Shown here in pieces: positions 1,819 through 31,955 of a stretch of DNA of 64,000 nt. Both the position numbers and the translations under genes were made by a program. The notes beneath the pieces are model-generated. The model made no database searches. It was given only the letters and a program-made list of their open reading frames with translations, and was not told the origin of the DNA. Position 1 is the stretch's first letter; each line of letters starts with the position of its first letter. Location of the stretch: contig JAJYVH010000001.1 of assembly GCA_021792095.1 (NCBI GenBank), forward strand, positions 445,324-509,323, read 5' to 3'. Source of the DNA: Candidatus Micrarchaeota archaeon. Lineage in GTDB: Archaea > Micrarchaeota > Micrarchaeia > Micrarchaeales > CABMGC01.

Positions 1819-1826
1819 GCATTCGC

Positions 1827-2828: not shown

Positions 2829-2831
2829 GGC

Positions 2832-11480: not shown

Positions 11481-12035
11481 GTGCCAAACGGAAACGTTAT
11501 AAAGCAGCGATTGAAGGGATTCAGCGATGGCGGTGTGATGCGCGCGACTGGCGAGAAAGCGATTCTTTTCATGGTTGTCCTGTTCTCTACGCTGGTCAGC
11601 GTAGGTGCGGTGCCTACAAGCTGCCTGTCAGGCGAATGCTCGACTTCCGTATCAACCTCCGTATCGTCCTCTACGCTGTCGAGCTCCAGCTCAACAACCA
11701 CCATACTCTCGGGCAGCTCCAGTTCTGGAGGGGCGGCTGCGCCATTGACATCGCTCCTTAGCTCTGAGCTCTGCGGCATCGTTAGCTCCATACAGACCAT
11801 AGTGGGCGTCCTTGCGCTGGCCCTGTTCCTTATAGGCGGTCTTATGTACGCCATAGCCCACTTCCTGCCCCCGAGCGTCGAATACAGGAAGAGCCTCATG
11901 GGCTGGGCCACGGCCATGATAACTGGCGGGGTGATAGGGCTGATTGTAGTGATAATAGCGCCAATGCTGGTAGGCATGTTCGCCGGGGCTGCGAGCACCG
12001 TGGGAGGCGGCGCGATAGGCGTAAGCTGCACGTAG
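11481..12035 (+). CDS. TrbC/VirB2-like two-TM small membrane protein with Ser/Thr-rich linker (candidate pilin, copy 1)
   Basis: Contains a signal-like segment (likely start ATG 11538: MRATGEKAILFMVVLFSTLVSVGA) and a low-complexity STSVSTSVSSSTLSSSSSTTT stretch. The core is LSSELCGIVSSIQTIVGVLALALFLIGGLMYAIAHFLPPSVEYRKSLMGWATAMITGGVIGLIVVIIAP. Confidence 0.55.
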   Translation: MPNGNVIKQRLKGFSDGGVMRATGEKAILFMVVLFSTLVSVGAVPTSCLSGECSTSVSTSVSSSTLSSSSSTTTILSGSSSSGGAAAPLTSLLSSELCGIVSSIQTIVGVLALALFLIGGLMYAIAHFLPPSVEYRKSLMGWATAMITGGVIGLIVVIIAPMLVGMFAGAASTVGGGAIGVSCT

Positions 12036-12632: not shown

Positions 12633-12684
12633 CACAGGAGCGCCGCTTTCGAAAGCATAGCCCTAGCCGCGTATAGCTTATTTA

Positions 12685-16255: not shown

Positions 16256-16312
16256 CTTAGGATATATGCGCTGGTAATTTAATCCTAGCGTGCGTTGTGC
16301 ATACGTGCCGGC

Positions 16313-17044
16313 ATGTCAACAATAGTCGAGGATGCGCTGGAGACATACAGGAGCAACATAAGGCTGGTCCTCCTGTTCTCCATACCTTTCGTGATAGCCT
16401 TCCTGATACCTCTGATAGCGCCGCTGCCAACCTACATATCAGGGGGCGGCATATTCCTTAGGAGCGCCAGCATATTCCTGAACCTCAACGTGCTCAGCCT
16501 CGCGGTGATAGTGGTATCCGTTTTCATCTCGCTGCTGTTCCTGAGCTTCGCCTACGTGGCCATATCGCTCATAGTGAAGGCGAAGCGCACGCTCTCCAGG
16601 ACGGCTGCAGGAGTGGCGCGCGAGCTCGAGAAATATACTGGCAGGGTGTTTGTGGTGCTGCTCCTCTACGCTTTCGTGCTCACACTGGTCGACGTGCTGA
16701 GCTACTTCGTCGGCCTGCAGGGGATAGCCACCCCGGTTGTGGGCTTCTTCCTCTTCGCGCTTGTATTCTACGCCCCGGCCTCCATAGTGATAAACAACAG
16801 CGGCGTTCTCGCGTCCATGAAGCAGAGCGCGCTGCTCGTCGCTAAGAGGCCGCAGTACTTCCTGCTGTGGATAGCGCTGCTTGTCCTCGTCGTGTCCATC
16901 CTGGACTTCCTGCTGATACACATAACAGGCACGCCTGTGTCCAGCTACCTGATGCTGGTCCTGAACTCGCTCTTCGTGGTGCCCTACTTCGTGATACTGC
17001 AGGCGGAGGCGTACATGAGGCGTTTCTCCATACTCGGGCGCTAG
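16313..17044 (+). CDS. multi-TM membrane protein, first gene of the secretion-like operon
   Basis: The ORF track starts at TTG 16295. However, a TAATTTAAT box at 16275-16283 fits ATG 16313 (MSTIVEDALETYRSN). About 6 hydrophobic segments; function unknown. Confidence 0.6.
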   Translation: MSTIVEDALETYRSNIRLVLLFSIPFVIAFLIPLIAPLPTYISGGGIFLRSASIFLNLNVLSLAVIVVSVFISLLFLSFAYVAISLIVKAKRTLSRTAAGVARELEKYTGRVFVVLLLYAFVLTLVDVLSYFVGLQGIATPVVGFFLFALVFYAPASIVINNSGVLASMKQSALLVAKRPQYFLLWIALLVLVVSILDFLLIHITGTPVSSYLMLVLNSLFVVPYFVILQAEAYMRRFSILGR

Positions 17045-17087
17045 AACAACTCTTTAATAACTAGGCAGCGGAATAAGCTCGGGCGCC

Positions 17088-18341
17088 ATGGAACTTAGGC
17101 AAGCTGTGTTGTCTGCACTTTCGCTGCTCTTTCTGGTAGCCGTTTCCACCGCGGCGGGCCCTACAGGCCCAGCTTCGCAGCTGATAACCGGCTGCGACAC
17201 ACTTACCCCATCGGCCGCGCTCGCCATACCCGGCGACATGATAAGCGTCGCGTTGCTGGCGCTGCTCGTGTCTTTCGACGTAGTGGCCCTTGGCTACATA
17301 CTGTCCAAAGTCTTCGCCAGCCAGCGCATCGCGGGCTGGGTCAACGGCGAGTTCTGGGAGATGGCGAAGACGGCGATACTGATAGTGGGCATCTTCTCCG
17401 CGCTTGCGATCCTGGGCAACATAGCGCTGCTGATTGCGCCTTCGTCGCTAAACCTGCAGCAGTCCCAGTCTGGCAGCTACTCGTCCAGCCTCGTGGCTCT
17501 TGCCGTAGGGGCGTGCAGCTACCTCGGCACCGCTTCTGTCACCACGACCGAAAGCCCCTCGAGCGCGAGGTTCGGGTACCCTACCATAACAACGTCAACC
17601 TCGGTGTCCAACGCCTACGTCTACGATTCGTTCTCCTACCTTATATCGTTCAGCAACGGACTGGGCGCCCTGAAGAATTCGAGCATCGGGCTGTGGATAC
17701 CCATACCGCCCCCGCCATTCTCTGCAGAGTCGCCCGTTGTGTTCACTTTCGGCTTCCACCTCAACCCCTACGAGAACAGGATGCTGGAGACCAACTTCAA
17801 GCTGGTGGGCCAGTATGCGTCCATGATAAACGACATGATGAACTACATAGCCGTGCCCACGCTCATGGCCATGGCCGTGCAGTACTACCTGCTGCCTCTA
17901 GTTTTCGTGCTGGGCCTGCTCGTCACTATACCGATAGGGCTCATACTGCGCGCGTTTCCCTTCGTGCGCGGCATAGGCGGCATGCTCGTGGCCCTGGGCA
18001 TAGGCATGTCGCTCATATACCCGGCGCTGCTCGTGCTGCTCAACTATCCTGTGACGCAGGCGCTGCAGTCGAGCTCCCTGCCCACCCTCTCCGGCTCTGC
18101 GTGCACCGGCATATTCTGCAGCTTCCTCGGGGGCATCACCGGTTCTGCTAACGTGCTTTCCAGCATAGACACTGTCTTCCCTGCGCTCAACGGACTGCTG
18201 AGCTTCAGCACCTACCTGCTGCTGCAGTTCATGCTCTTCATACTCGACCTTGCGATAGCGTTCCCGCTCGTGGACAACATAGCCAGGATGCTGGGAGGCT
18301 CCATAAGGCTCCAGCTCGGAGGCAAGCTGAAGATGAGGTGA
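17088..18341 (+). CDS. polytopic membrane protein, paralog family member (signal peptide; candidate VirB6/CedA-like)
   Basis: 417 aa with signal peptide MELRQAVLSALSLLFLVAVSTAAG. The N-block is SKVFASQRIAGWVNGEFWE and the core motif is RAFPFVRGIGGMLVALGIGMSLIYPALL. The tail is ARMLGGSIRLQLGGKLKMR. Confidence 0.7.
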   Translation: MELRQAVLSALSLLFLVAVSTAAGPTGPASQLITGCDTLTPSAALAIPGDMISVALLALLVSFDVVALGYILSKVFASQRIAGWVNGEFWEMAKTAILIVGIFSALAILGNIALLIAPSSLNLQQSQSGSYSSSLVALAVGACSYLGTASVTTTESPSSARFGYPTITTSTSVSNAYVYDSFSYLISFSNGLGALKNSSIGLWIPIPPPPFSAESPVVFTFGFHLNPYENRMLETNFKLVGQYASMINDMMNYIAVPTLMAMAVQYYLLPLVFVLGLLVTIPIGLILRAFPFVRGIGGMLVALGIGMSLIYPALLVLLNYPVTQALQSSSLPTLSGSACTGIFCSFLGGITGSANVLSSIDTVFPALNGLLSFSTYLLLQFMLFILDLAIAFPLVDNIARMLGGSIRLQLGGKLKMR

Positions 18342-18429
18342 TGCGACGCTAGACCCGGTACTGCTGCAGGCTGCCGCGCCGGCATGCGGCTTTGCGAGCA
18401 TAGACCAGTACGGCTGGATAAGCATCAAT

Positions 18430-19563
18430 GTGCTCGTCGTGCTGGCGAGCGTGATGATCGCGGCCGTAGTTTTCGTGTTCGCCAACTTCCTGCCCCCAGA
18501 GCGTATGCAGAGGCTCAGGGGCATATCCAGGTACGAGATGGTGGAGGCTATCGTGAGCATAGTGATAATAGGCGCGCTGCTCGGCTTCTCCTCCTTCGCG
18601 TGCAACGCAGGCGCGTCGCTGGTAGGCTCCAGCGGGTACACGTCGCTGTTCGGCGCCGACACGACGTACGTGAGCAACCTCCTGTTCCTGAACGGGGTGG
18701 GCATAGTTGAGAACGTTTACACGTCGTCGATAAGGCTCGTTATAGCGGCGAACATATTCAGCTATGTGGCCCCGCTGCTCGCCGACAAGTACCTGACTGC
18801 AAGCGCTGCTCTGACCAGCGCGTCGGGCAAGCAGTACGTAAGCATAAGCATGACGGTGAACCCTGCTTTCAACGACTACTTCTACAAGCTCTCAGGAGTG
18901 CTGACGGGCGCGATGTCGTCCCTCGTAATAATAGCGTACTCCATCCTGTTCCTGCTCTTCCTGCTTTTGCCGGTCATAAGCGCTGGCGCGCTCACACTGC
19001 TGGCTCCGCTGTCGCTCATAGTGCGTTCGCTCTCGTTCGCCGGCAAGAAGCTGCGCGAGGTGTCCAACCAGCTCCTGGCGATAGCCATAGGCTTCTACTT
19101 CGTGCTCCCCCTGATGCTGGCCCTCAACGCGTATGTGGGAGCCTGCCTGAACATAGGGCTGGGAGGCACTGCAGTCTCGTGCAGCTACCTGCCAAGCATC
19201 ACGCACTATCTAACCGCGTATACGCTGCCCGTGGCGCCGGCGTCCCTGTTCACGTCGAGCAATCCGCTCGACCTGAGCTCCAACGCGATGGTCAGCAACT
19301 TCGTTGCAGGCTTCGGGGGCACGGGCATACTCGGTAGCTTCTACGGCCCCGCTTTCTCCAACGTGGGCACGTTCTTCAGCACCATACTGTACTATCCCGG
19401 CGTGGCGCAGGGGTATGCGTTCCAGATATCCGGCTACGTGTTCCTTGGAGTAGTGATGATAGCCCTTGATTTCGCTGTGACGCTTGGTTTTGTAGTAGGG
19501 ATAGCCAAGGGGCTCAATGCGATGAGCGGCAACGAGCTCTTCGGGGCCGAGCCCATATTGTGA
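18430..19563 (+). CDS. polytopic membrane protein, paralog family member (divergent core motif; start uncertain)
   Basis: 377 aa from GTG 18430, with N-block PPERMQRLRGISRYEMVE and core RSLSFAGKKLREVSNQLLAIAIGFYFVLPL. The in-frame upstream sequence (18343-18429) encodes ATLDPVLLQAAAPACGFASIDQYGWISIN. This resembles the N-terminus of the 22522 paralog (GVLLQASVYNY..) but contains no in-frame ATG/GTG/TTG. Confidence 0.65.
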   Translation: MLVVLASVMIAAVVFVFANFLPPERMQRLRGISRYEMVEAIVSIVIIGALLGFSSFACNAGASLVGSSGYTSLFGADTTYVSNLLFLNGVGIVENVYTSSIRLVIAANIFSYVAPLLADKYLTASAALTSASGKQYVSISMTVNPAFNDYFYKLSGVLTGAMSSLVIIAYSILFLLFLLLPVISAGALTLLAPLSLIVRSLSFAGKKLREVSNQLLAIAIGFYFVLPLMLALNAYVGACLNIGLGGTAVSCSYLPSITHYLTAYTLPVAPASLFTSSNPLDLSSNAMVSNFVAGFGGTGILGSFYGPAFSNVGTFFSTILYYPGVAQGYAFQISGYVFLGVVMIALDFAVTLGFVVGIAKGLNAMSGNELFGAEPIL

Positions 19564-21416
19564 TCTCCATGAAGCCTATCGCGCTCGCAATCGCCGTCGT
19601 GCTCCTCTCCGGCATAGCGGGCACCGCCGGCGCGGCCTCAGGCGCCACTTTCATGACGCCGTATTCGGGCTTCGAGTCGTGGCTGCCCATAGTGTTCCTG
19701 GGCATACTGATAAGCTTCATGATAGTCGCGCTGCACTACATGCTCGGGGCTGTGCTGCAGAACAACAGGGTGAAGGCAAGCGCCGTTGGCGAGCTGGGCC
19801 AGGTGATAGGGGCGGTGGTGATAGCTGTCATAGTGATTGGCATACTGTACTTCGTGGGCACAAGCGAGTTCTCATTCGTCTCATTCGTGTCCCCTGGCAG
19901 CGTCTACTCGCTCTGCGGGCAGATCGGCAATTCCAAGTTGGATTTCCTCTCCGGCGCCCCATCGAACACGATATGCGGCTACATCGATTCGCTGGATGCG
20001 GGCAGCACAGACATAACGGAAAGGCTGGACTACGGCCTGTTCGCGAGCTACGCCATACTCGCCAACCTAACAAACCAGGACGCGAACAACCTCAACTCCA
20101 TATATATCTTCGAGGGCTGGATAGGTTTCCTCTACAAATTCACATCCGTTTTCGGGATCTGCTCCCCCGGGGAAACATGCTTCCCTCCATTCGTGCCCAG
20201 GACGATAAGCCTTACTGTATCGTACCAGCCGCTTGCCGGCTATCAGGCCCTGGAGAGCGTGGCCAGGCCGCTGGAGGCCGAGGCCAACCTGACCTTCTAC
20301 CTGCTGTTCATGCAGATGGTCGTGATACTCATACTGCTCTTCGCGTGGCCCTACCTGCTGGCCGCCGGAATGGTGCTGAAGTCTACGTTCTTCGCTCGGC
20401 GGCTAGGCGGCCTGCTCATGGCCATGGCGCTCGCTGCCGTGCTAATCTTTCCACTCATGTACCTGCTGGAGTACTCGGCGTTCTCGAACCTCAACCTCGG
20501 CCCGATAGGCGCGACGAACCTGCCCAATGTGCCGGTGTACGAGCAGCTCCCCGGGACCAGCGGCAACGTCATCATATACGGGTCGACCTCCACAGGCGGC
20601 TACGTGCCGTCGTACCTGGCGCCTTCTTCCAGCTGCCCCAGCGTCAGCGGGGGCATAAAGAATCCGCAGGAGCTGGGGCCAAGCTACGTCTATGAGTCGG
20701 AGTGCGGCAACGCAAACACAGCGAGCAAGGGCTGCACGTACAGCAGCATCTCGGGGGCTGCCTCGGTCTCGCCGCTCTGCCCGCAGGTCGTGTTCCAGGC
20801 TTCGCCGTCCTCGGCCCCACAGTCCTGCACGGTAGGCGAGGCGGGCTGCACATTCAGCGGATACGTGCCCTATACGCAGTCCCCAGGCGCAGGCTGTGCG
20901 CCAGGCGACTATGTATACGAGACATCGTGCGGCACCCCCACGATCCAGGGCTCTACGGTGCCAAGCGGCGTTGCGCTGTGTTCGGCTACACCGCCGACCG
21001 ACGAGCTCTGCGTATCGCCGCTGAGCTCGAACATCAACTTCTTCGTGCTGCCGAACCTGGACCAGGCGCTTACCTACTACTCGTGCGAGCCCACGCCCCT
21101 GATGGGATACGAGGCCGCCTTCGCGGTCTACTACCTGATCCCCGGATTCGGGATAGTAACTGGGCTGCTGAGCGGCGCGTTCGGCTTCGTGGGCCAGCTG
21201 CCCGTGACTCCGCTCAGTTTCGGCGGCGCCGGAGCGTGCAATCCGAGCAACGCCATACACTCTGTGCTCATGCTCACCAACGTATACGGCATAGTGTTCG
21301 TGGGCGGGGTGCTGCTGCCCCTGCTCAACATACTTATAGCCCTGTCAGCTGTTTCTGGGTTCGCTGTGCTCTTCGGAGGTGACACGGACATACTTGGCCT
21401 CTCTAGGTTGATATGA
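19560..21416 (+). CDS. polytopic membrane protein, paralog family member with large Cys-rich extracellular insert
   Basis: 618 aa. GTG 19560 overlaps the upstream stop (GTGA); the alternative ATG 19569 gives MKPIALAIAVVLLSGIAGTAGA. The N-block is LQNNRVKASAVGELGQ and the core is KSTFFARRLGGLLMAMALAAVLIFPL. The insert carries repeated YVYE(S/T)xCG and many Cys. The tail is FGGDTDILGLSRLI. Confidence 0.7.
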   Translation: MISMKPIALAIAVVLLSGIAGTAGAASGATFMTPYSGFESWLPIVFLGILISFMIVALHYMLGAVLQNNRVKASAVGELGQVIGAVVIAVIVIGILYFVGTSEFSFVSFVSPGSVYSLCGQIGNSKLDFLSGAPSNTICGYIDSLDAGSTDITERLDYGLFASYAILANLTNQDANNLNSIYIFEGWIGFLYKFTSVFGICSPGETCFPPFVPRTISLTVSYQPLAGYQALESVARPLEAEANLTFYLLFMQMVVILILLFAWPYLLAAGMVLKSTFFARRLGGLLMAMALAAVLIFPLMYLLEYSAFSNLNLGPIGATNLPNVPVYEQLPGTSGNVIIYGSTSTGGYVPSYLAPSSSCPSVSGGIKNPQELGPSYVYESECGNANTASKGCTYSSISGAASVSPLCPQVVFQASPSSAPQSCTVGEAGCTFSGYVPYTQSPGAGCAPGDYVYETSCGTPTIQGSTVPSGVALCSATPPTDELCVSPLSSNINFFVLPNLDQALTYYSCEPTPLMGYEAAFAVYYLIPGFGIVTGLLSGAFGFVGQLPVTPLSFGGAGACNPSNAIHSVLMLTNVYGIVFVGGVLLPLLNILIALSAVSGFAVLFGGDTDILGLSRLI

Positions 21417-22525
21417 TGCGCGCCGCTATCGTGTTGTTGCTCCTTGCCTTCCTGCTTACCTCCGGCATGGCGAGCGCGGGGCCTTCGGTGGAGGGCAACA
21501 TCTGCTCCTCACTCTTTAGCAGTTCCAGCCCCATGCCGCTGCACGGTGCAGCCGGCTACTTGGGCACAGTGGCCGGCATAGCCCTCCTGGTGGTGCTTGT
21601 GGTATTGATTGTGCTCGGCGTAGCCTACGCGGTAGGCTACGCCTTCGGAATAAACTCACTCCTCAATTTCGTAAAGACCGAATCGGTGGAGAGCTTTTTC
21701 AACATACTGCTGATTGCGCTTGTCGCGTTCGGCATAGGCTTCGCCGGGCCCGCCATGCAGTTCCTTGCCGGAATAGGCGGCATAGGCCTTGAGTCGGCAG
21801 GCGCCGCAGCGCCAAACATAGCCAGCGCCCAGGGACTCTACACGAGCCTTTGCACTCACTACGTTACCCACGGGATAGGGACGGTCATTGATAACGAGAT
21901 AACGCTGAGCATAACCTACATATTCACCGAAGTGCTGCAATCTACTACTGTGCTGCTCATGCCGAACGGCTTCGGGTTCTCGTGGTCGCCATTCGCAGGC
22001 GCGACGATACAGCTCAACGTAATAAACACGCAGATGCAGGTGTACACCTTCTTCGCCGCTATCTTCGTGGCTATAGCTATACTGCTGGCGCTGATATACT
22101 TCCTCTTCCCTATTTTCCTGTACGCTGGCGTGCTCCTCAGGGCGTTCCCGTGGACCAGGGCTGCTGGAGGCTCGCTCATAGCGCTCTTCATCGCTTTCTA
22201 CATAGTGTTCCCCGCGCTTCTCTACCCGTTCTCCACCTACCTCACCGTTGCAGTTAACGCCGCCTCCGGCTCGATACCGCCGCTGAGCTCCCTGTCGAGC
22301 CTCTCGCTGCCTGTCTCGGTGCTCGCGTCCTCGATCGACGGGGCCGCCGTCGCTGACGAGGTGATGGGCGTGGGCGGGTTCGCGCAGAACCTGGCTTACA
22401 TGACGCTGCAGATAATAGGCATATTCATCGCATTCCTGGTATCCTTCGACCTGCTCGAGGGATTGGGAGACCTCCTCGGCTCGCCGTCGCTCAGCGCTGG
22501 CAAGCTATTCAGCAAGGTGATATGA
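21413..22525 (+). CDS. polytopic membrane protein, paralog family member
   Basis: 370 aa with an ATGA overlap on the upstream gene and signal peptide MMRAAIVLLLLAFLLTSGMASA. The core is RAFPWTRAAGGSLIALFIAFYIVFPALL and the tail is LGDLLGSPSLSAGKLFSKVI. Confidence 0.7.
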   Translation: MMRAAIVLLLLAFLLTSGMASAGPSVEGNICSSLFSSSSPMPLHGAAGYLGTVAGIALLVVLVVLIVLGVAYAVGYAFGINSLLNFVKTESVESFFNILLIALVAFGIGFAGPAMQFLAGIGGIGLESAGAAAPNIASAQGLYTSLCTHYVTHGIGTVIDNEITLSITYIFTEVLQSTTVLLMPNGFGFSWSPFAGATIQLNVINTQMQVYTFFAAIFVAIAILLALIYFLFPIFLYAGVLLRAFPWTRAAGGSLIALFIAFYIVFPALLYPFSTYLTVAVNAASGSIPPLSSLSSLSLPVSVLASSIDGAAVADEVMGVGGFAQNLAYMTLQIIGIFIAFLVSFDLLEGLGDLLGSPSLSAGKLFSKVI

Positions 22526-23577
22526 TGATGGGCGTACTACTCCAGGCAAGCGTATACAACTACATAATGTCGCCCTACCTGGTGTGGCTCCCGGTGGCGT
22601 CGGCAGCGGCGATCGCCATAATAGGCATACTTGCCGTTGCCTATATGCTGACCTCCTTCATGGGCGACAGGCGCATGGCCACGTGGGTGCGCGTAAAGAT
22701 ATACGAGGTGGTCTTCAGCTTCATACTCATAGGCGCCTTCGCCTTCGTTGTAGTGCTGCTAACCTCGGTCAACTTTGTCCAGCTCTTCGGACCTGTCTAC
22801 GGGCCGGGGCAGGACGGGCTCGTGCCTATGGCGTGCTCCGCCCAGGGCAGCCCGCCAATACCGTCCAACGACCTCTTCACGCTGGCCGTATGCGATATGC
22901 ATCTGTTCGTGCAGCAGGTGACCAATATAGGCGCAGCCGTGTACTGGATCGGCGCCCAGTTCGCCTTCGTGCCCAGCGTGAGCGTAGTGGTCACTCCGGT
23001 GCCCGGAGTGAGCAGCCTTGGCGTGTCTACGAGCTTCACGCTCATACCCCGCGCCGACGAGGTCTTCCTGGCCTATGTCATAGACCTCATATACATCACG
23101 CTCACGGTGGCTCAGCTGCAGGTGCTGCTGCTCGCTGCATCGCTGTTCATATTCTCGCTCTTCATGGCGATAGGCCTTATAGCAAGGCTTTTCGTCATAA
23201 CCAGGAGTTTCGGCGGGGCGCTCATAGCGTTCGCGGTGGGGCTGGGCATAGTATACCCGCTGCTCGTGGCCATAACCTATGGGTATGTTAACGTGGGCAT
23301 GCAGAACACGGCTGGCGTTCTTATCTGGCTCGAGGGATCCGGGGCGCTTGGCGGTATACTTGGGCTCCTTGTGCTGGTCGGCGTGCCGACGTTGGTGGGG
23401 AGCGCTTTCGCAGGCGTCACCGGCGCAATGCTCCTGACCTATCTAGGACTTGCGATAATGGGCCTTGTGTTCGTGCCCATACTAACGTTTGTATTGGTTG
23501 ACGTGTTCATAATAGACTTCTCAAGCGCAGTGGGCGAGAAGATGGACTTCCTGTCCCTGCTCACCAATGTTATATGA
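22522..23577 (+). CDS. polytopic membrane protein, paralog family member
   Basis: 351 aa with an ATGA overlap. The N-block is FMGDRRMATWVRVKIYE, the core is RLFVITRSFGGALIAFAVGLGIVYPLL and the tail is AVGEKMDFLSLLTNVI. Confidence 0.7.
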   Translation: MMMGVLLQASVYNYIMSPYLVWLPVASAAAIAIIGILAVAYMLTSFMGDRRMATWVRVKIYEVVFSFILIGAFAFVVVLLTSVNFVQLFGPVYGPGQDGLVPMACSAQGSPPIPSNDLFTLAVCDMHLFVQQVTNIGAAVYWIGAQFAFVPSVSVVVTPVPGVSSLGVSTSFTLIPRADEVFLAYVIDLIYITLTVAQLQVLLLAASLFIFSLFMAIGLIARLFVITRSFGGALIAFAVGLGIVYPLLVAITYGYVNVGMQNTAGVLIWLEGSGALGGILGLLVLVGVPTLVGSAFAGVTGAMLLTYLGLAIMGLVFVPILTFVLVDVFIIDFSSAVGEKMDFLSLLTNVI

Positions 23578-24743
23578 GTGTGTTGCGTATGCGAGTAGGC
23601 ATTGTGTTCTTGGCTGTCGTGCTTGTCGCGTTAGCAGCGCAGGCTGTCGGCGCTTCGTTCACTTCCCCATCTTCTGGCGTCGGCCCTATCTCAGGAACGC
23701 AGTACAGCACTTCATACTGCCTGCAGGGCGGCGTTGCGTCTATTGCGGCCCCGTGGTACTGCAGCCAGATCAACCAGGCGGTGGCCAGCATATGGCAGCA
23801 GTGGGAGCCCATAGCAGTCATAACCATAATGGTGGCCTTCATGATAGCCGCTGTGATATTCGCAATAGGCATAGCCATAAGGAACCAGAGGGTTAAGGAC
23901 TTCGGCATGGGCGAGATCTACGAGGCCGTGGCTACCGCTTTCATAGCAGTGTTCTTCCTGACGCTCGCCGCAATACTCTTTGGCGTGATACCGGCATACA
24001 CGGCGGGCAGCATAGACCCGTACAACACATCGCTTAGCTACATAAGCAGCACAATAAACTCCTCAGGTGGCCTGCTGTCCAGCATACTGAACGTGGTCAT
24101 AATAGACTACTTCTACAGCAGCATAAGCATAGAAGTCAACGTGTCGAACGTGCCGCAGACGGTCGCAGGCCTGCCGGCCCGGGCCATAGCCAGCACAGCC
24201 GATACGCTCTCGCCCTACGCGCCATTCATACTCGCATTCTTCATAGAGCCGGCCAAGGTTGTAGGAGACTTGCTTATCGATGCGCTGGTAGCGCTCGAGG
24301 CCGAGTTCTACATGATACTCTTCTTCATGTACATAGCGATACCTGTGTTCCTCATACCCGGCATAATATTCCGCGCCATATTCCCATTGAGGAGCGTGGG
24401 TGGCATGCTCATAGGCGCTGCCTTCGCGTTCTACGTAGTGATGCCGCTGCTGTTTTCGGTCGCGTACTACTTCACGAACACGAGCCAGCTGGAGATGCTC
24501 AACTCTGCTTCGGCAGCAGTTTCGGTCAACGGGGCCGGCACCCTGGCGCAGACGAATGCGGCATCGCCCATGGCGCCCCTGGTCACGGAGATGACCGGCT
24601 TGGAGAGCAGCATGGGGGGCTTCTTCCTCTCTATACTCTTCTATCCCGCGCTGATACTCGCCATAACATACACGGCGATGACGACAGTGGCCGATTTCAT
24701 AGGCGGTGCGGCGAAGAGGACAGGCAGGATGGCGCTCGTATGA
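23574..24743 (+). CDS. polytopic membrane protein, paralog family member
   Basis: 389 aa with an ATGA overlap and signal peptide MSVLRMRVGIVFLAVVLVALAAQAVGA. The N-block is IRNQRVKDFGMGEIYE, the core is RAIFPLRSVGGMLIGAAFAFYVVMPLL and the tail is FIGGAAKRTGRMALV. Confidence 0.7.
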   Translation: MSVLRMRVGIVFLAVVLVALAAQAVGASFTSPSSGVGPISGTQYSTSYCLQGGVASIAAPWYCSQINQAVASIWQQWEPIAVITIMVAFMIAAVIFAIGIAIRNQRVKDFGMGEIYEAVATAFIAVFFLTLAAILFGVIPAYTAGSIDPYNTSLSYISSTINSSGGLLSSILNVVIIDYFYSSISIEVNVSNVPQTVAGLPARAIASTADTLSPYAPFILAFFIEPAKVVGDLLIDALVALEAEFYMILFFMYIAIPVFLIPGIIFRAIFPLRSVGGMLIGAAFAFYVVMPLLFSVAYYFTNTSQLEMLNSASAAVSVNGAGTLAQTNAASPMAPLVTEMTGLESSMGGFFLSILFYPALILAITYTAMTTVADFIGGAAKRTGRMALV

Positions 24744-24809
24744 GCGCATCCATTTCCTAACCTTTAAATTACATTAGATGTAAGTGTAAAGGAGGCGGAA
24801 AGTGGTTGA

Positions 24810-25640
24810 TTGGCGATCTCGCAGAAATTCCTGTTCACGCTGCTGCTGCTCGGCACGTTCCTGCTAGTCTTCGTTACGTACGCCCTGCCTATCGGCATAA
24901 TAGCAAAGTTCGTCGTCGCGGTGGCGGCCCTTTTCCTTGACATACTGGCATTCTCCACGAAGCTCTACATGAGCTTCTTCATGCCGTTCCTCCACATGAA
25001 GAATGGGACGCTCACCATAGACGACAGCGAGGCGTTCACTATAGCGCCCTCGAGCAACGCCATAGTGACCAGGCGCGGGGGCGACGTGTATGCCAGCGCC
25101 TTCGTGCACATACCCACGTACCGCTCATCGAGCGAGATGAACCAGGAGGAGAAGGTGGACTTCGCCAGGCTGTTCAGCCGCGCGCTCACGATCTCCAAGA
25201 CGCCTGTGCGCTTCAGCGCGCAGCTCTGCGTGATAGACAAGGACGTTTACATAAACAACATAAAGGACAGGATGAACGAGGCCGAGGAGAGATACCAGGC
25301 GACCTCGCTGAACAAGAACGCGAAGCGCGAAGAGGTGGAGAGGATCAACGGCGAGGCGACGATGTGGCACAACCTCTTCGACAACGTGAACAGGGTTAGG
25401 TCGCTGGCTCTAGACGTCTTCGCGATGGTCACGGCGCAGGGCAACACGGAAGAGGAGGCGAGCACGCTCGCGCTGCAGCAGGCCGACGAGATTGCGTCTG
25501 GCGTGAGCTCCGTGTTCGGGGTGCAGGCGAGCTTAGTCGAGGGAGAGGACATACTCAAGTATCTGGAGCCGGACCACATGATACCTATAAGCACTGTGAG
25601 TGAGGAGATGCGCGCCCGCGCCGCATCCGAGGGGACGTAG
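24810..25640 (+). CDS. TM-anchored protein, candidate VirB3/VirB4 N-terminal-domain-like (copy A)
   Basis: 276 aa with a TTG start 15 nt downstream of GGAGG. It has two N-terminal TM helices, then NGTLTIDDSEAFTIAPSSNAIVTRRGGDVYASAFVHIPTYRSSSEMNQEEKVDFARLFSRAL..PVRFSAQLCVIDKD. This logic resembles the N-terminal (CagE_TrbE_VirB-type) region of VirB4. Similarity was judged by eye only. Confidence 0.55.
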   Translation: MAISQKFLFTLLLLGTFLLVFVTYALPIGIIAKFVVAVAALFLDILAFSTKLYMSFFMPFLHMKNGTLTIDDSEAFTIAPSSNAIVTRRGGDVYASAFVHIPTYRSSSEMNQEEKVDFARLFSRALTISKTPVRFSAQLCVIDKDVYINNIKDRMNEAEERYQATSLNKNAKREEVERINGEATMWHNLFDNVNRVRSLALDVFAMVTAQGNTEEEASTLALQQADEIASGVSSVFGVQASLVEGEDILKYLEPDHMIPISTVSEEMRARAASEGT

Positions 25641-26465
25641 ATGGACGGGCTGACAATAGTATACCTGGGGCTGACATGCGGCCTGGCTTTCATGCTGCTG
25701 GTGAACGCAGCCGCGTTCGGGCCGCTGGGGCTTGTTGTGGCCCTGCTTTCGCTTCTAGCAATAATGCTCATACTGGTGCTCAACTACGCCGACTTCATAC
25801 TGTTCCCTGCGATAACTAGGCTGCTGAGTATAAAGATGGTCCCCGCAAAGGGCTACTACATGCCGAAGGGCAGCGACGCGGTGATAAAGTATGTCAGCGG
25901 CCTCTACTACGCCACGGGCTACCTGACCGCTAACATATACAACTATGTCTTCGCTGCGGAGAGCGTGGATGAGGAGGAGGAGCAGAAGCTGGGCTCCGCG
26001 CCCGACAAGTGGGAGCGGATAGTGATGAACGCTGGCTTCCCCTTCAGGTTCAGCGTCATATCAATGCCCAAGGACCTGCAGAAGTACAGGGACGAGCTCG
26101 AGGGGTCGAGGGGCACGCTGGAGTACAGGCTGTCCAAGGAGCAGGAAGGCAGCCAGCCCAGCCAGCTCGTGATAGACGACCTCAACAGGAAGATAAGCGT
26201 CATAAACGCCAGGATAGACCGCATAGCGGCCGGGGAGAGGCCCGTGGACGCCACTATGTACATAGAGAGCACGGCCGTGGGGGTGAGCGAGAAGGAGGCG
26301 ATGGATGCGCTCAGCAACCAGCTCGCGCACCTGCAGACGCTCTTCAGCTCATTCGACCTCAGCATCGGCAGGGTCATGGGCAGGGAGGTGTACCACCTCT
26401 TCTCGTTCGGCTACGCGCTGCCGGAGTACAGCGCGCTGGAGCAGACGTTCAGCACACAGAAATAG
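25641..26465 (+). CDS. TM-anchored protein, candidate VirB3/VirB4 N-terminal-domain-like (copy B)
   Basis: 274 aa that starts directly after the upstream stop. It has two TM helices, then KGYYMPKGSDAVIKYVSGLYYATGYLTANIY...GFPFRFSVISMPKD. It is a paralog of 24810-25640 and 1093-1818. Confidence 0.55.
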   Translation: MDGLTIVYLGLTCGLAFMLLVNAAAFGPLGLVVALLSLLAIMLILVLNYADFILFPAITRLLSIKMVPAKGYYMPKGSDAVIKYVSGLYYATGYLTANIYNYVFAAESVDEEEEQKLGSAPDKWERIVMNAGFPFRFSVISMPKDLQKYRDELEGSRGTLEYRLSKEQEGSQPSQLVIDDLNRKISVINARIDRIAAGERPVDATMYIESTAVGVSEKEAMDALSNQLAHLQTLFSSFDLSIGRVMGREVYHLFSFGYALPEYSALEQTFSTQK

Positions 26466-26523
26466 GCATATATGCTTGGCGTGATTATTTGATGCTTGGA
26501 AGCGTTTCAAGGGGCGGGTCCGC

Positions 26524-28029: not shown

Positions 28030-28048
28030 CGCGCGGGGCGCATGGAGC

Positions 28049-28345
28049 ATGGGAGTGACTTTCACAGTAGGCAGGATGGAGCTGAAGCGCGTGCTCACGG
28101 CTCTCGGCGTCAGCGAGAGGAGCATAGACGACATGCTGGCAGAGATGAACAGGCAGCACAGGCACGTCAACGTGGTTGCGTTCGCGGGCATGCTGCAGAA
28201 GGTGGGGCTGGACCCCGACGAGGCCGCGAACGTGCTCAGGCGCATAGGCGTTGACGACGTTTCGATAGCGAGCGCCTTCGACACTCTCGACGAGGAGCGC
28301 ATAAAGGGTGCGTACGGCAAGGTGGTGGACCTAGTGGTGGAGTGA
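28049..28345 (+). CDS. small helical protein related to the ATPase C-terminal repeat module
   Basis: 98 aa with repeated L..(L/I)G(V/L)....I units: RVLTALGVSERSIDDML, MLQKVGLDPDEAANVL, RRIGVDDVSIASAF. The tail of the 501-aa ATPase (LLRSFGLQDSIITRVF) and the ATPase at 1-1092 (MRELAVDEGDIAAAF) carry the same units. Confidence 0.5.
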   Translation: MGVTFTVGRMELKRVLTALGVSERSIDDMLAEMNRQHRHVNVVAFAGMLQKVGLDPDEAANVLRRIGVDDVSIASAFDTLDEERIKGAYGKVVDLVVE

Positions 28346-28346
28346 A

Positions 28347-28706
28347 GTGCAGAGGAAGAGTTACTGCATAATCTGCGGTGCCGAGAAGAAGGGGCTGGAG
28401 GTACAGGACGATTGGGAACTGGGCGCGATACGCTGGTTCAAGAGGAACGTCACCAAGAACGAGAAGGGGAACAGGCTCGTCGTCTGCAGGGAGTGCTATC
28501 CCAAGTACGAGGCAAGCAGGGGCAAGTTCGAGTCCAGGCAGAAGCTCTACATCGCGCTCGGGGCCATCTTCGCTGTGCTGAGCCTCGTGCTGTCCCCGAG
28601 CCTGACTTCCGTGCTGCTCGCCGTGTCCATCATGCTGATAATGCTTGCGCTCTCGCTGCTGAGCTACACGCCGAAGATAAGCATAAAAACTAGGCACGAG
28701 AAGTGA
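28347..28706 (+). CDS. zinc-ribbon protein with two C-terminal TM helices
   Basis: 119 aa with a GTG start 1 nt after the upstream stop. CIICGAEKKG...VCRECYP gives CxxC...CxxC, followed by LYIALGAIFAVLSLVL and VLLAVSIMLIMLALSLL. Confidence 0.6.
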   Translation: MQRKSYCIICGAEKKGLEVQDDWELGAIRWFKRNVTKNEKGNRLVVCRECYPKYEASRGKFESRQKLYIALGAIFAVLSLVLSPSLTSVLLAVSIMLIMLALSLLSYTPKISIKTRHEK

Positions 28707-28731
28707 TATCGCTCACAGCGGGTGTTGATGC

Positions 28732-29457
28732 GTGGAGGAGAGTGTAGAGGGAGAGCCAAAGGTGGAGAGCGTCGAATTTCCGGGGAAGCTCAACGCGAGT
28801 ATCGACGAATTAGCCCAGAAGATAGCCGCCATACCCTTCTACTCGGTGCAGAAGAGCGAGGGCTCTCTGGAAGTGGCGAGGATAGAGAGCAGGAACGTGC
28901 ACAAGATGCCCTTCCTGTTCTACATAATAAACATAGGCCCGGCCTCGATGCAGGTGACCTATTCCATCGCGCCGGGCAGCAGCGACAGGCTGCGCCGCGC
29001 AGACGTGATAAGGAACGTGGCCTCGTTCCTGGCGATACTCGGCGACAGCTTCGAGGTGGACACGGGCAAGTTCCTGCAGTACGTAGATTCGTCGCTCGCC
29101 AACCTGATAAGCGGCCTGTCGCAGAGCTACAGCACCCTGTTCAACAAGTACGACGCGCTGCTCAACGAGTACGTGGAGGACAAGAAGCTGCTCCATGAGC
29201 TGGAAGCCTCGAACAGGAACCTGACAATACAGACGAGCCAGCTCAACGATGACAACAAGGCGCTCACGCAGCAGCTGAAGTCGCTGCAAACCTATTCCGA
29301 CGAGTCGCTCATGGCCATGATCCAGGACTGGCTCGACGTGCACAACAGCTCGATAGACGTAGGCGAGTTCGCCAAAGCCTACAAGGTGACGGAGCCCAGG
29401 GTTGAGCAGATACTGGACAGGATGGTGTCCATGGGCTACATAGAGCTGAAGAGCTGA
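28732..29457 (+). CDS. coiled-coil protein with C-terminal winged-helix-like domain
   Basis: 241 aa with a central heptad-like region (LLNEYVEDKKLLHELEASNRNLTIQTSQLNDDNKALTQQLKSLQ). The C-terminus is IDVGEFAKAYKVTEPRVEQILDRMVSMGYIELKS. Confidence 0.55.
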   Translation: MEESVEGEPKVESVEFPGKLNASIDELAQKIAAIPFYSVQKSEGSLEVARIESRNVHKMPFLFYIINIGPASMQVTYSIAPGSSDRLRRADVIRNVASFLAILGDSFEVDTGKFLQYVDSSLANLISGLSQSYSTLFNKYDALLNEYVEDKKLLHELEASNRNLTIQTSQLNDDNKALTQQLKSLQTYSDESLMAMIQDWLDVHNSSIDVGEFAKAYKVTEPRVEQILDRMVSMGYIELKS

Positions 29458-29461
29458 TACG

Positions 29462-29617
29462 GTGCGATACGCGGTAACTGTAAACAGGAAGTACAAGTAC
29501 GTGAAGGTGTACAGGGTCGTGAAGAGGGTGAGCGGCGGCACGAACAAGCTCTCGGAGTTTACCGCAAGGTTCATAGACAGGCTGGTGCAGGGAAAGAAGG
29601 CCAAAGGGCAGGCGTAG
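29462..29617 (+). CDS. small basic protein (51 aa), below ORF-track cutoff
   Basis: My translation from GTG 29462 is MRYAVTVNRKYKYVKVYRVVKRVSGGTNKLSEFTARFIDRLVQGKKAKGQA*. It fills the gap between neighbouring genes almost exactly (4 nt and 7 nt spacers), which argues for a real gene. Confidence 0.4.
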   Translation: MRYAVTVNRKYKYVKVYRVVKRVSGGTNKLSEFTARFIDRLVQGKKAKGQA

Positions 29618-29624
29618 TGGTGCT

Positions 29625-31955
29625 ATGAGGCTCGTGTTCAAGGCAGTCGCCGCCGCCGTGGTGCTGGCCGCCGTCCTTCTGCTAGTATCGCTCTACGTGA
29701 CAAGCGCGCTGGGCGCGATACGCGCCCCGGCAGGCCCGAGCGTCCAGAAGCTGGGCGTTGTTTCGGTGAACGCCAACGCGGGCAGCGTTTACCTGTTGAG
29801 CTACGCCAACGGCACCGAGCCCCTGCTGTATTCGCTTGTCAGCTATTCGGAGCTCAACGCCACGCTTACCTCGGTCGGCTTCACTATATACGCGAAGAAC
29901 CCTGTCGAGCGCATATTCCTGCTGAACGTAAGCAACTACTGCGTATCGTGCTACAACGAGCAGGACCTGCAGTCCGGCCTCCAGACCTATTTGGCCGCCT
30001 ACGACCTGATAAGGAACTCGACGAGCTTCGCTACGGTCAACGCCTCCGGTTTGGGCTCCCTGCCTCCCGGCTCCATAGTGATAATACCGTCCGGCCTCAT
30101 GCCTGAGTATCTAGTAAACGGGACGAGCCCCGGGCTCGCGAGCCTGCTTGCGAAAGGGGACACTGTGGTGTACGTGGGCAGGAACTTCAACAGCTCCATA
30201 GGCAGCGACGGGCTGATCTTCCTTACGCCTGCCACCACGCTCGCCGAGCTTGCTTCGCTGCGCCTCTCGACAAGCAATATCAACGCCTCCGCTCCCGCTC
30301 CGGCCGGCTCGGCCAACCTGACTTTCGCGAACCCCGAATTCAAGTTCCAGTACGGGGCAAGCAACGGGAACCTCACCTACGTGTCTTCCCTGAACGGCAC
30401 TCTGGTCGCTTTCCCTAACTACCCCAAGGACGGCTGGGGCTCGGCCATAGCCGAAGCCAGGGACATAGCCAGCGCTATCAACGATTCCTTCTGGGTGCGC
30501 GAGCTCGGCCATTCGACAACATACCTGTTCACAAACGGTGCCGCTAGCGGAACCATAGGCGCATTCACGAACGCCACCGGCGTCAGCGCACCTGGCATAA
30601 ACGGCACCTACTCTGTGGTAAGCGTGGTCGCGAGCAACCAGAACAGCCTTGCCATGCGGAAGCTGGTGCTCCAGAACGTGTACGCGCAGAACGGCACTGT
30701 CTCGCTACCACCGCAGGTCGGGGTGACGCAGCAGGTGCCTGTATCGATGCGCGTGACCAACACAACGGCGCAGCTCCTGCTGCACGTCGATATCTATAAC
30801 AGGAACATGAGCTACGTAGGGTCAATACCTGTCGGCTTCGTGAGCAACGAAGCGGCGGTGGTCAAGTACCACACGTTCGGCCTGCCAGGCGGCTATTACG
30901 TGCTCCAGCTGAGGGACTTCAACGACAGGTACTACGGCGGCGCGATGCTGTACGTCGCCCCTGTGAACATAACGCCAGTTTCGCTCGACTTCAACAACGG
31001 CACCTTCGTCTTCTCCGCATACAGCAACGGCATAGCGCTTAACAACGTCAGCTACAACGCAAGCCTCAACGGCCTCTACGCCTCGTCGGGCACGGTAAGC
31101 GGCGGCGTCATCTCGTATTCGATACCGAGCGGCGCGCCTATAAGCTACGGCAGCGAGAGGTTCAGCTTCGGCGTGCTAGGCACAGCTTACTCGTACGGCA
31201 CCAGCTACACCAAGCAGGTGCTCAACATACCTGTAATATACATCGAGTTCGTGATAGCTGCCGTTGTAGTGGTGCTGATCAACCTGCTACTCAAGCCCCC
31301 TAACCGCGACGAGTACTACATAGACGTGCCAGACTTCCCGCCCGGCACGCGCGAGAAGGTGCACGTCCAGAGGAGCGCGCTGCTGGGCGTGTTCGACAAG
31401 GTGAACTACTACCATGGCTGGAAGTACATGCCGCTCACGATAGACGAGGTCAAGCTCGGCATAGCAAACAACATACGCTCGGGCAACATGCCTGTCTCTG
31501 TCACCACGAGGAACCTCGAGGGCACGCTGGCCTCTCTGGAGCAGGCCAACGCCATAATGAGCACTGCCGGCTACTACGCCCCGGCGGCATGGTCCGCGGC
31601 GTCGGGGCACAGCATAGAGTACCTGGCCGTGTTCAGGCGGCTGCGCGACTACTGCGTGTCTCACGCTATACTGTTCACTGACATCGATGCCGACGAGCAC
31701 TCCGACATGCTCATGACGAAATCAGGCGTGCAGGTAAGCGCTTACATATACGCGCGAGGGGAACGCATGAAGAAAGTGGGCATCTCCAGGGAAGTGAGGA
31801 GCGTGGTAGTGTTCGCGAGCGACGACGCCGTGCGCGAATTCGAGCGGAAACTCTACGCATCCACATCAAGGCAGGCCGAGCTGCTCAAGCTTGGCATCGA
31901 GTACAGCTACCTCAGGCTACTGGACGTAGACAGCCTGGATCAGCTGGCGTTCTGA
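29625..31955 (+). CDS. large bitopic surface protein (N-glycosylation-sequon-rich ectodomain, one TM, cytoplasmic C-terminal domain)
   Basis: 776 aa with signal/anchor MRLVFKAVAAAVVLAAVLLLVSLYV. The ectodomain of about 520 aa has well over a dozen N-x-S/T sequons. A TM helix (IPVIYIEFVIAAVVVVLINLLL) follows, then a cytoplasmic domain of about 230 aa. It is the last gene of the operon. Confidence 0.65.
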   Translation: MRLVFKAVAAAVVLAAVLLLVSLYVTSALGAIRAPAGPSVQKLGVVSVNANAGSVYLLSYANGTEPLLYSLVSYSELNATLTSVGFTIYAKNPVERIFLLNVSNYCVSCYNEQDLQSGLQTYLAAYDLIRNSTSFATVNASGLGSLPPGSIVIIPSGLMPEYLVNGTSPGLASLLAKGDTVVYVGRNFNSSIGSDGLIFLTPATTLAELASLRLSTSNINASAPAPAGSANLTFANPEFKFQYGASNGNLTYVSSLNGTLVAFPNYPKDGWGSAIAEARDIASAINDSFWVRELGHSTTYLFTNGAASGTIGAFTNATGVSAPGINGTYSVVSVVASNQNSLAMRKLVLQNVYAQNGTVSLPPQVGVTQQVPVSMRVTNTTAQLLLHVDIYNRNMSYVGSIPVGFVSNEAAVVKYHTFGLPGGYYVLQLRDFNDRYYGGAMLYVAPVNITPVSLDFNNGTFVFSAYSNGIALNNVSYNASLNGLYASSGTVSGGVISYSIPSGAPISYGSERFSFGVLGTAYSYGTSYTKQVLNIPVIYIEFVIAAVVVVLINLLLKPPNRDEYYIDVPDFPPGTREKVHVQRSALLGVFDKVNYYHGWKYMPLTIDEVKLGIANNIRSGNMPVSVTTRNLEGTLASLEQANAIMSTAGYYAPAAWSAASGHSIEYLAVFRRLRDYCVSHAILFTDIDADEHSDMLMTKSGVQVSAYIYARGERMKKVGISREVRSVVVFASDDAVREFERKLYASTSRQAELLKLGIEYSYLRLLDVDSLDQLAF

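Follow-up and report, generated by a model that had tools for sequence, protein, structure and literature searches.

A candidate domesticated relative of the Ced and Ted systems in Micrarchaeota, with a split VirB4-type ATPase and six membrane paralogs

The closest characterized systems to the one described here are Ced and Ted. Ced, found in the Sulfolobales (CedA, CedA1/A2, CedB, CedD/CedE), is chromosomal and relaxase-less and consists of a VirB2-like pilin, a polytopic VirB6-like protein, and a VirB4/HerA-like ATPase. The function of the VirB4 N-terminal domain (NTD) is spread in Ced over more than one polypeptide: CedB's NTD matches one part of the VirB4 NTD and that of CedD another (PMC11868833). 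Ted, found in the Thermoproteales (TedA/TedB/TedC), is also a chromosomal minimal set of pilin, channel, and ATPase; its pilin has a cleavable Sec-type signal peptide (PMC9905601), and its TedB is one full-length VirB4-like protein. We analyzed a gene cluster with these same basic parts in a 64,000-nucleotide (nt) stretch of DNA from a Candidatus Micrarchaeota archaeon (GenBank assembly GCA_021792095.1, contig JAJYVH010000001.1, positions 445,324 to 509,323), referred to below as the window. Here the NTD of a VirB4-type ATPase is encoded apart from the motor and in two copies, and a polytopic membrane protein that is single in minimal versions of the module is present as six paralogs.

Two bacterial systems are partly comparable. 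The Rickettsiales rvh type IV secretion system (T4SS) is chromosomal, belongs to an obligate symbiont, and has tandem divergent VirB6 paralogs (PMC2653234, PMC7648143), but it is found in diderm bacteria and includes VirB7-11 and VirD4, and its expansion is independent of the one in the window and unrelated to it in sequence. The T4SS of the Patescibacteria (Candidate Phyla Radiation [CPR]) is phylum-wide, relaxase-less, and MPF-FATA related; its carriers are ultrasmall episymbionts, and one cultured strain does not grow epibiotically without it (PMC12102498). Unlike the Micrarchaeota cluster, it is bacterial, has a full-length VirB4, and has VirB6, VirB3, and VirB8 proteins that existing profiles find. 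A first-pass annotation of the window, made from the DNA alone, had called the layout of the cluster unrecognized. The combination is indeed undescribed in the literature on Micrarchaeota and DPANN archaea that we searched, which held no account of six channel-like orthogroups with a split, duplicated NTD; partial precedents do exist, however, in the Rickettsiales VirB6 paralogs and the CedB and CedD NTDs.

The ATPase and its detached N-terminal domain

The center of the main plus-strand cluster (module A) is an ATPase of the HerA-FtsK superfamily (Table 1; positions are window coordinates, and L007, L008, L009, L010, L012, L014, and L015 are labels of compared loci). The motifs first read from its sequence are present (Walker A GITGAGKS, Walker B VLDEAW, and REGRKYQ), and it matches Pfam DUF87 (E = 8e-16), AAA_10 (4e-14), and P-loop_TraG (2e-10). 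In whole-domain comparison with NCBIfam, it scored 68.5 bits with CedD, 64.0 with CedB, 63.2 with VirB4-like CD1110, and 58.1 with another VirB4-like conjugation ATPase. The HerA models scored 52-53 bits, 10-16 bits under the CedD/CedB/VirB4-like models, and matched its C-terminal half. None of the equivalog cut-offs was reached: these are 700 bits for CedB (NF041017), 600 for CedD (NF053655), and 800-970 for HerA (NF040819 and NF040937). The CedB and CD1110-VirB4 models match all 40 of 40 diverse family members, and the best PDB match of the family profile is VirB4 (4ag5, E = 6e-31), collinear over residues 56-372. Because the VirB4 and HerA scores are nearly equal, the ATPase core places the protein in the VirB4/HerA branch only and leaves the choice between the two undecided.

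HerA, known from HerA-NurA repair and from antiphage systems, belongs to the same superfamily and gives similar core scores, but its N-domain is a HAS-barrel and its partners are nucleases or Sir2-type proteins. The window ATPase, in contrast, has only ~55 residues ahead of Walker A and no HAS-barrel; its N-domain partner is VirB4-like, and its neighbors are membrane and pilin-like proteins, with no NurA, Mre11, or Rad50 genes nearby among the called genes. A defense system, in which HerA would be paired with an effector such as Sir2, DUF4297, or a nuclease, was also considered and rejected: the PADLOC HerA, mad8, and DndH models match the ATPase alone and none of the eight partners scanned.

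The two genes ahead of the ATPase encode transmembrane (TM)-anchored proteins, n1 and n2, which are paralogs (hhalign of n1 versus the n2 family 92.8%, E = 4e-7). Their soluble parts had been thought to resemble the VirB4 N-terminal region, and two lines of evidence now support this. One is homology to fused relatives of the ATPase, which we found in a search of 1.8 billion representatives. These proteins, ~690-910 amino acids (aa) long, have a TM segment and a ~270-aa domain ahead of the ATPase part, which is 33-35% identical to ours. n1 matches the NTD of the fused Thaumarchaeal ATPases (hhalign 95.8%, E = 7e-9, 180 columns). The match of the n2 family was weak (12%, E = 0.0024); the convincing link came from n1. 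Profile-profile comparison was required, as single-sequence phmmer searches with n1, n2, and nB (the n-like protein of module B, below) against the fused ATPases gave nothing. The other line is structural. The 186 homologs of n2 all measure 273-275 aa; the AlphaFold2 (AF2) model of n2 has a mean predicted local distance difference test (pLDDT) score of 82.8, and ranks 1-3 and 5-7 of its Foldseek matches in the PDB are R388 TrwK/VirB4 chains (probability ≤0.93, E = 0.03). Because no other P-loop protein appears in that list, we argue that the match is to the VirB4-specific NTD. The likeness of n2 to VirB4 is structural only, since sequence models of the VirB4 NTD find no match; a search of PDB sequences with the n2-family profile likewise found no VirB4.

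With R388 VirB4 chains as the best PDB matches of n2, the motor is best read as a split VirB4-type ATPase: its NTD is detached and duplicated as n1 and n2, its catalytic part is the 501-aa protein, and its C-terminal helical domain is recopied as s1 (orthologs 43-51% identical). An n-like gene lies directly before the ATPase gene in five of five more distant loci. On the downstream side, s3 is a conserved partner of the ATPase: a 229-aa homolog directly follows the ATPase in L014 (E = 2e-18), and proteins of similar size follow it in L010, L015, and module B. s3 also has a weak ESCRT-II-like Pfam match.

Among the GTDB species representatives, the patterns of the fused family found only two loci, both in Thaumarchaeota/Nitrosopumilales. 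There, a 99-aa protein with 2-3 TM segments and a ~290-aa polytopic protein with an R..GG motif stand upstream of the fused ATPase, beside a tyrosine integrase or a DNA methylase. Such a neighborhood agrees with the presence of conjugative integrated elements in these archaea (PMC9905601, citing Krupovic 2019). These Thaumarchaeota/Nitrososphaeria elements resemble module A in their small TM and polytopic proteins and in the homology of their NTD to n1, but they keep TM segment, NTD, and ATPase in one chain and have a single channel-like gene. Their ATPases also differ in a C-terminal extension, which by eye resembles a winged helix-turn-helix (wHTH) followed by a PD-(D/E)xK-like nuclease motif (…H.Y…D.V…E.E…). 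We compared this extension with s3 and with the tail of the 776-aa surface protein of module A and found no relation.

As annotated, a second, small minus-strand module (module B) occupies positions 1-3191; it is followed by genes for 229-, 183-, and 62-aa proteins and is surrounded by ribosomal and tRNA-synthetase genes. Locus L014, on a metagenomic contig of 43% GC, has a pilin (80 aa), one m-family protein (331 aa), one n protein (259 aa), the ATPase (485 aa), the s3 homolog, and a TM/sequon-rich protein. The minimal order is pilin, m, n, ATPase, s3-like protein, and surface protein. These modules have a single m and a single n; module A thus repeats their set of parts, but with six copies of m, two of n, and additional small proteins.

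Six membrane paralogs in a conserved chromosomal locus

The six tandem polytopic proteins m1-m6 are paralogs by pairwise BLAST (E = 1e-4 to 8e-11 in a 17-protein database), by a common motif (R-x-[FP]-x-x-R-x-x-G-G-x-L-x-A...P-L), and by their tree. All follow one plan. A signal-like helix and a helical hairpin come first; a large outer loop, variable in sequence, leads to a second hairpin, which bears the motif, and beyond another variable loop the protein closes with a helix that has an LGG-type motif at its end. Their orthologs in three other Micrarchaeota genomes stand in the same positions and are 27-54% identical, and a neighbor-joining tree of the four genomes resolves six clean positional orthogroups. 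The single m protein of L014 groups in this tree with the m paralog of module B. The single polytopic protein of the minimal modules has been multiplied to six, each with its own orthogroup and in fixed order. Conservation is highest at the motif hairpin (56-78% identity) and falls to 0-16% in the worst 25-residue blocks of the outer loops. By its orthogroups the expansion is old, and the retention of all copies points to six non-redundant subunits. A seventh m-family paralog follows m6 in L007 (7140-8222).

The first-pass annotation had described a six-fold expansion of a channel-like component. The paralogy stands, but searches with hidden Markov models and folds did not identify the proteins as VirB6. 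The AF2 model of m1 (pLDDT 68.8) has five long TM helices; its topology is predicted to be N-out, with the C terminus inside and the large extracytoplasmic loop between TM2 and TM3. VirB6 is also an N-out, C-in protein with five TM segments and a large loop between TM2 and TM3 (PMC6120205), which makes the modeled topology of m1 a resemblance to VirB6, not proof of kinship. Three weak profile matches between the m family and the Thaumarchaeal polytopic protein are collinear and include the R..GG motif (P = 0.0028, 0.01, and 0.26). Homology of the m paralogs to VirB6, for which position, topology, and these matches speak, is not demonstrated. The only match of the m-family profile among PDB sequences, TTYH2, is spurious.

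Two small genes near the array had been noted as VirB2-like, and consistent sub-threshold matches to VirB2 families uphold them as candidate pilins. p2 matches Pfam T4SS_pilin (E = 0.0024) and TrbC (0.086). In the wider pilin family, T4SS_pilin matches four of five members (best E = 3.6e-4; the gathering threshold of 26.6 bits is not reached) and TrbC three of five; the top PDB match of the family profile is TrwL/VirB2 (E = 0.2). p1 duplicates p2 (75% identity over 93 aa), and the p2 ortholog in L012 (129 aa) is 56% identical. Like the Ted pilin, p2 has a Sec-type signal peptide. The ~60 extra residues of p1, almost all Ser or Thr, precede the conserved hairpin and are likely an O-glycosylation or spacer region.

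The gene order and the flanks of the locus are conserved in relatives. The order in L012 is MoxR, pilin, a 636-aa polytopic protein, m0, m1-m6, n1, and n2, which is the window order from 10547 on apart from the duplicated pilin gene and a minus-strand DUF2079 gene in the window. The L012 ATPase is on the same 853-kb contig, beyond the stretch compared; between n2 and its expected place lie at least 2 kb of opposite-strand genes (19149-21353). Downstream, L007 preserves s1, s2, s3, s4, an 803-aa surface protein, top6B, and a KH protein, with an extra Laminin_G_3 protein between s2 and s3 (12186-13073). The ATPase is 68-72% identical to those of these relatives, compared with 66% for topoisomerase VI B (top6B), 69% for MoxR, and 48% for the KH protein. 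On a 203-kb contig of MAG (metagenome-assembled genome) GCA_027363655.1, the ATPase is identical in protein sequence. Homologs with 70-97% identity occur in >120 Micrarchaeota clusters, and nearly all of the closest named ones are from Micrarchaeota, Micrarchaeia, or Micrarchaeaceae. Plasmid relatives are distant (24-28% identity; annotated as DUF87, VirB4-like, or TraC), as are those on viral contigs (23-32% over longer matches).

No integrase, relaxase, or coupling protein (VirD4/TraG) was found among the called genes of the window, which cover ~1-38 kb. The first-pass annotation had taken the lack of such genes and the housekeeping flanks as signs of a host-encoded machine and not a plasmid. 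The annotated part of the window agrees with it, as do the six orthogroups, the one-to-one synteny, which includes the top6B and MoxR flanks, and the finding that neither plasmids nor viral contigs carry a close relative; gene order in relatives, a check that it had proposed, proved to be conserved. Synteny, orthogroups, flanks, and the missing mobility genes therefore indicate that the system belongs to the core genome, is inherited vertically, and is no mobile element.

Two other relatives of the ATPase have additional segments. P0147, a 49%-identical ortholog, aligns at query residues 4-294 and is then interrupted, just past Walker B, by an intein with a LAGLIDADG homing endonuclease. P0148 (1196 aa), 51% identical, has ~720 extra N-terminal residues before the ATPase part.

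Possible function and competing explanations

We think that module A is probably a domesticated, chromosomally fixed relative of the T4SS and conjugation machinery of monoderms and archaea, of the Ced/Ted kind, whose expanded, split version is peculiar to Micrarchaeota. The resemblance to such systems had been proposed at the outset, and it is supported by the NCBIfam ranks, the 4ag5 match, the fold match of the split NTD, and the neighborhood of the fused relatives. Module A nevertheless differs from Ced in several ways. Its ATPase is far below the equivalog cut-offs (68 versus 600-700 bits); its NTD is physically off the ATPase and duplicated; its channel-like protein is fixed as six paralogs, where Ced has one or two; it has the extra conserved partners s1-s4, the 776-aa surface protein, and a 651-aa polytopic protein; and it belongs to an obligate symbiont lineage with no known link to UV response. 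The likeness to Ted is one of layout, which module B and L014 share: no sequence similarity was detected, and no comparison was aimed at Ted.

Several results weigh against this interpretation. Curated family thresholds are reached by the generic DUF87, AAA_10, and P-loop_TraG domains only. In the PDB comparison of the ATPase profile, HerA-like 8wiv (E = 6.5e-29) and HerA 4d2i (5e-26), and also DptH, come close behind 4ag5, and the PADLOC HerA model scores 78 bits on the ATPase. Pfam CagE_TrbE_VirB (PF03135) matches neither n1 nor n2 nor the fused relatives, and the fold match of n2 to VirB4 is modest (E = 0.03; TM-score normalized to n2, 0.37; range of VirB4 covered not reported). No VirB6, TrbL, or CedA model in Pfam or NCBIfam matches any m protein, and the m1 model matches no fold in the PDB. 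The cluster in L015 is limited to n, the ATPase, and a 233-aa s3-like gene, amid housekeeping genes; the motor may therefore also work without adjacent m or pilin genes. Finally, cargo, direction, and contact with a host are only what we infer.

If module A is such a T4SS relative, n1 and n2 would hold a hexameric ATPase at the membrane, beneath an assembly of m1-m6 that would serve as platform or channel in a VirB6-like role. The ATPase would pull p1 and p2 from the membrane and polymerize them into a conjugative-type pilus or a short conduit across the surface layer (S-layer). The variable, presumably glycosylated outer loops of m1-m6 and the 776-aa protein would be the exposed part that faces a Thermoplasmatales-type host, and s3, with its wHTH, may handle DNA on the cytoplasmic side. 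The most likely direction would be import, of DNA as in Ced or of another host macromolecule. Import is favored because the relaxase and coupling protein are absent, Ced is the closest functional model, and Mia14, which is without purine and pyrimidine synthesis (PMC5498576), cannot make nucleotides.

An open question about DPANN archaea is by what physical means they acquire DNA, nucleotides, lipids, and proteins from a host. A more specific scheme, tentative and on balance doubtful, would bear on it: m1-m6 would assemble into a VirB6-derived ring of six different subunits that shares its axis with the hexameric split VirB4 motor and, together with the p1/p2 pilus and the 776-aa protein, would be an essential envelope-spanning conduit that draws DNA, nucleotides, or other macromolecules from Thermoplasmatales hosts. 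A parallel for such a ring would be the archaeal homo-oligomeric rings that became hetero-oligomeric in eukaryotes. If this scheme is true, the m-ring conduit would be the long-sought molecular basis of the DPANN-host connection. Module A is a candidate for such a device because it is conserved across the sampled Micrarchaeota, evolves at the rate of housekeeping genes, is T4SS derived in our reading, and has fast-evolving exposed loops. A previous account of Micrarchaeota lists type IV pili, Sec, and Tat but not this cluster (PMC5498576), and Micrarchaeum can be kept in stable co-cultures, for which transcriptomes and proteomes are available (PMC8975820). The cluster would also extend domesticated conjugation machinery of the Ced/Ted type beyond Thermoproteota, in parallel to the chromosomal T4SS of the CPR, and it would be an unusual case in which a secretion system has its channel component fixed in the form of six distinct subunits and its VirB4 motor divided among separate genes.

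Other functions can be proposed for the same parts. The motor and the m platform might build only a surface fiber, an adhesive p1/p2 pilus directed to a host or biofilm, with no passage of macromolecules. Bacterial VirB4 drives pilus biogenesis, and it fits a fiber that pilin-like genes head the conserved cluster, that relaxase and coupling protein are absent from the called genes, that the outer loops are variable, and that a large surface protein is encoded; pili-like links between ARMAN (archaeal Richmond Mine acidophilic nanoorganism) cells and Thermoplasmatales are also reported (PMC5498576). We nevertheless consider a fiber alone unlikely, as the wHTH partner s3 always adjoins the ATPase, Ced and Ted move DNA with the same minimal parts (PMC9905601, PMC11868833), and Micrarchaeota already own two type IV pilus systems for adhesion (PMC5498576). 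A cargo other than nucleic acid has a slim chance in our estimate; a T4SS-derived motor would then take up host lipids, proteins, or glycoconjugates or export envelope glycoproteins. T4SSs secrete proteins in many bacteria, and the pilin genes have as neighbors two genes for large polytopic proteins of GT-C-like or unknown type (the 651-aa and DUF2079 proteins). The Patescibacteria also keep a relaxase-less chromosomal T4SS (PMC12102498), and DPANN archaea rely on their hosts for lipids and metabolites (PMC5498576; 10.1101/2023.12.06.570485). What lowers the chance of such a cargo is that no effector-like or lipid-binding domain was found with Pfam or NCBIfam, that the wHTH partner is conserved, and that the closest characterized systems transport DNA.

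We hold it to be similarly improbable that n, the ATPase, and the wHTH protein form a membrane-tethered, HerA/FtsK-like housekeeping translocase that pumps chromosomal DNA in segregation or repair, the other membrane proteins being incidental. Such a role would suit an ATPase that is conserved like housekeeping genes, has one ortholog with an intein, and scores nearly as well with HerA as with VirB4 models; it would also suit the gene set of L015 and the weak ESCRT-II-like and wHTH matches of s3. It is at odds with the missing HAS-barrel, with an N-domain that is homologous to the fused NTD of integrated elements and whose best fold match is VirB4, with the lack of nearby NurA, Mre11, and Rad50 genes, and with the linkage of pilin, m, n, and ATPase, which recurs in module A, module B, and L014 in layouts independent of one another. 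That module A is an integrated conjugative element or a decaying remnant of one seems very improbable. The nearest fused relatives do lie beside an integrase in Thaumarchaeota, and a TnpB gene is found ~5 kb downstream of the cluster, but the same housekeeping flanks are kept at 68-72% ATPase identity, the genes are intact one-to-one orthologs, GC content is uniform, and the called genes include no integrase, relaxase, or coupling protein, nor are there close plasmid or viral relatives.

Cluster boundaries, neighboring genes, and minor observations

The plus-strand array at 16295-31955 comprises m0, m1-m6, n1, n2, the ATPase, s1-s4, and the 776-aa surface protein. All of the open reading frames named in the first-pass annotation exist where it placed them, the same frames are called by independent gene callers on three assemblies, and GC content is uniform over the region. 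The extent given at first (16313-31955) is right for the array but not for the start of the conserved cluster, which lies upstream at the pilin genes (11481) and possibly already at the MoxR gene (10547). Four ATGA/GTGA overlaps had been listed; those at 21413, 22522, and 23574 are exact ATGA overlaps, whereas the GTGA at 19560 depends on the start chosen for m3. It requires the GTG at 19560, but gene callers take the ATG at 19569, with 5 nt between it and the m2 stop. The remaining gaps, originally put at 0-7 nt, measure 0-88 nt. The genes are thus tightly packed, but a single transcript is not shown, because TATA-like boxes lie in the m0/m1 gap and in the m6/n1 gap.

TABLE 1 Features of the two modules and their surroundings (window coordinates unless a locus is named)
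Feature	Position	Strand	Evidence or remark
Module B ATPase (DUF87), 372 aa in full	1..1092	-	Crosses window edge; Walker A GVTGSGKT, Walker B LLLDEAW
nB, n-like TM-anchored NTD of module B, 241 aa	1093..1818	-	hhalign versus n2 family 87.7%, E = 3e-6
Module B m-family paralog, 333 aa	1827..2828	-	Motif; BLAST versus m1-m6, E = 1e-3 to 1e-6
Module B pilin-like protein, 119 aa	2832..3191	-	Resembles 80-aa L014 pilin, E = 3e-8
MoxR-type AAA+ ATPase	10547..11467	+	Pfam AAA_3 1e-45, AAA_lid_2
p1, VirB2-like pilin candidate, Ser/Thr-rich N-terminal insert	11481..12035	+	Two-helix hairpin; Pfam T4SS_pilin E = 0.03, sub-threshold
p2, VirB2-like pilin candidate, signal peptide and two hydrophobic helices	12243..12632	+	
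651-aa polytopic protein, ~13 TM, extracellular sequon-rich C-terminal domain	12685..14640	+	Between pilin gene and m0
DUF2079 polytopic membrane protein	14678-16255	-	Between 651-aa gene and m0
m0, 7-TM protein	16295..17044 (ATG at 16313)	+	Outside m family
m1, polytopic paralog 1 in VirB6 position	17088..18341	+	Orthologs 34-45% identical
m2, paralog 2	18430..19563 (alternative start 18454)	+	
m3, paralog 3, large Cys/Ser-rich extracellular insert	19560..21416 (alternative start 19569)	+	
m4, paralog 4	21413..22525	+	
m5, paralog 5	22522..23577	+	
m6, paralog 6	23574..24743	+	
n1, TM-anchored detached VirB4-type NTD	24810..25640	+	n2 paralog
n2, TM-anchored detached VirB4-type NTD	25641..26465	+	
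VirB4/CedB-type (HerA-FtsK superfamily) ATPase, 501 aa	26524..28029	+	C-terminal motor part
s1, stand-alone copy of ATPase C-terminal helical domain	28049..28345	+	hhalign 92.8%, E = 4e-7
s2, CxxC...CxxC zinc ribbon and C-terminal TM helix	28347..28706	+	TIGR04104 0.016, weak
s3, coiled-coil and C-terminal wHTH-like protein	28732..29457	+	Weak wHTH and coiled-coil Pfam matches
s4, 51-aa basic protein	29462..29617	+	51-aa ortholog at same place in L007
776-aa bitopic sequon-rich surface protein	29625..31955	+	~220-aa cytoplasmic C-terminal domain
Fused relatives with C-terminal wHTH/nuclease-like extension	P0191, P0192, P0199, P0202, P0231, P0243; L008 9992-12577; L009 9986-12727		

The MoxR gene is possibly part of the system on the basis of adjacency: 13 nt separate it from p1 in the window, and 48 nt separate the L012 MoxR gene from its pilin gene. 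No VWA partner was seen for it. The 651-aa polytopic protein has an ortholog at the same position in L012 (the 636-aa protein, 39% identical) and no family match in Pfam or NCBIfam and no match in the PDB. The DUF2079 gene is missing at that position in L012 and thus looks like a lineage-specific insertion. The L012 ortholog of m0 is 62% identical and has a faint DUF4013 match. The 776-aa protein and its L007 ortholog (803 aa) are 36% identical overall, with better conservation in the C-terminal part. It is not the Micrarchaeum S-layer protein, a 101-kDa protein with TIGR01564/TIGR01567 S-layer domains (10.1101/2021.04.28.441871), as it has no NCBIfam match.

Two further genes lie outside the cluster. 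A minus-strand gene at 5089-5613 encodes a 174-aa protein with no Pfam match, the N terminus of which (RKAQSAMEYLMTYGWAILII) has the character of a class III signal peptide as known from archaeal type IV pilins. The TnpB, at 36728-37882 on the plus strand, is Cas12f1-like (Pfam Cas12f1-like_TNB), and its gene lies between those for ribosomal protein S6e and a CDC48 AAA ATPase.

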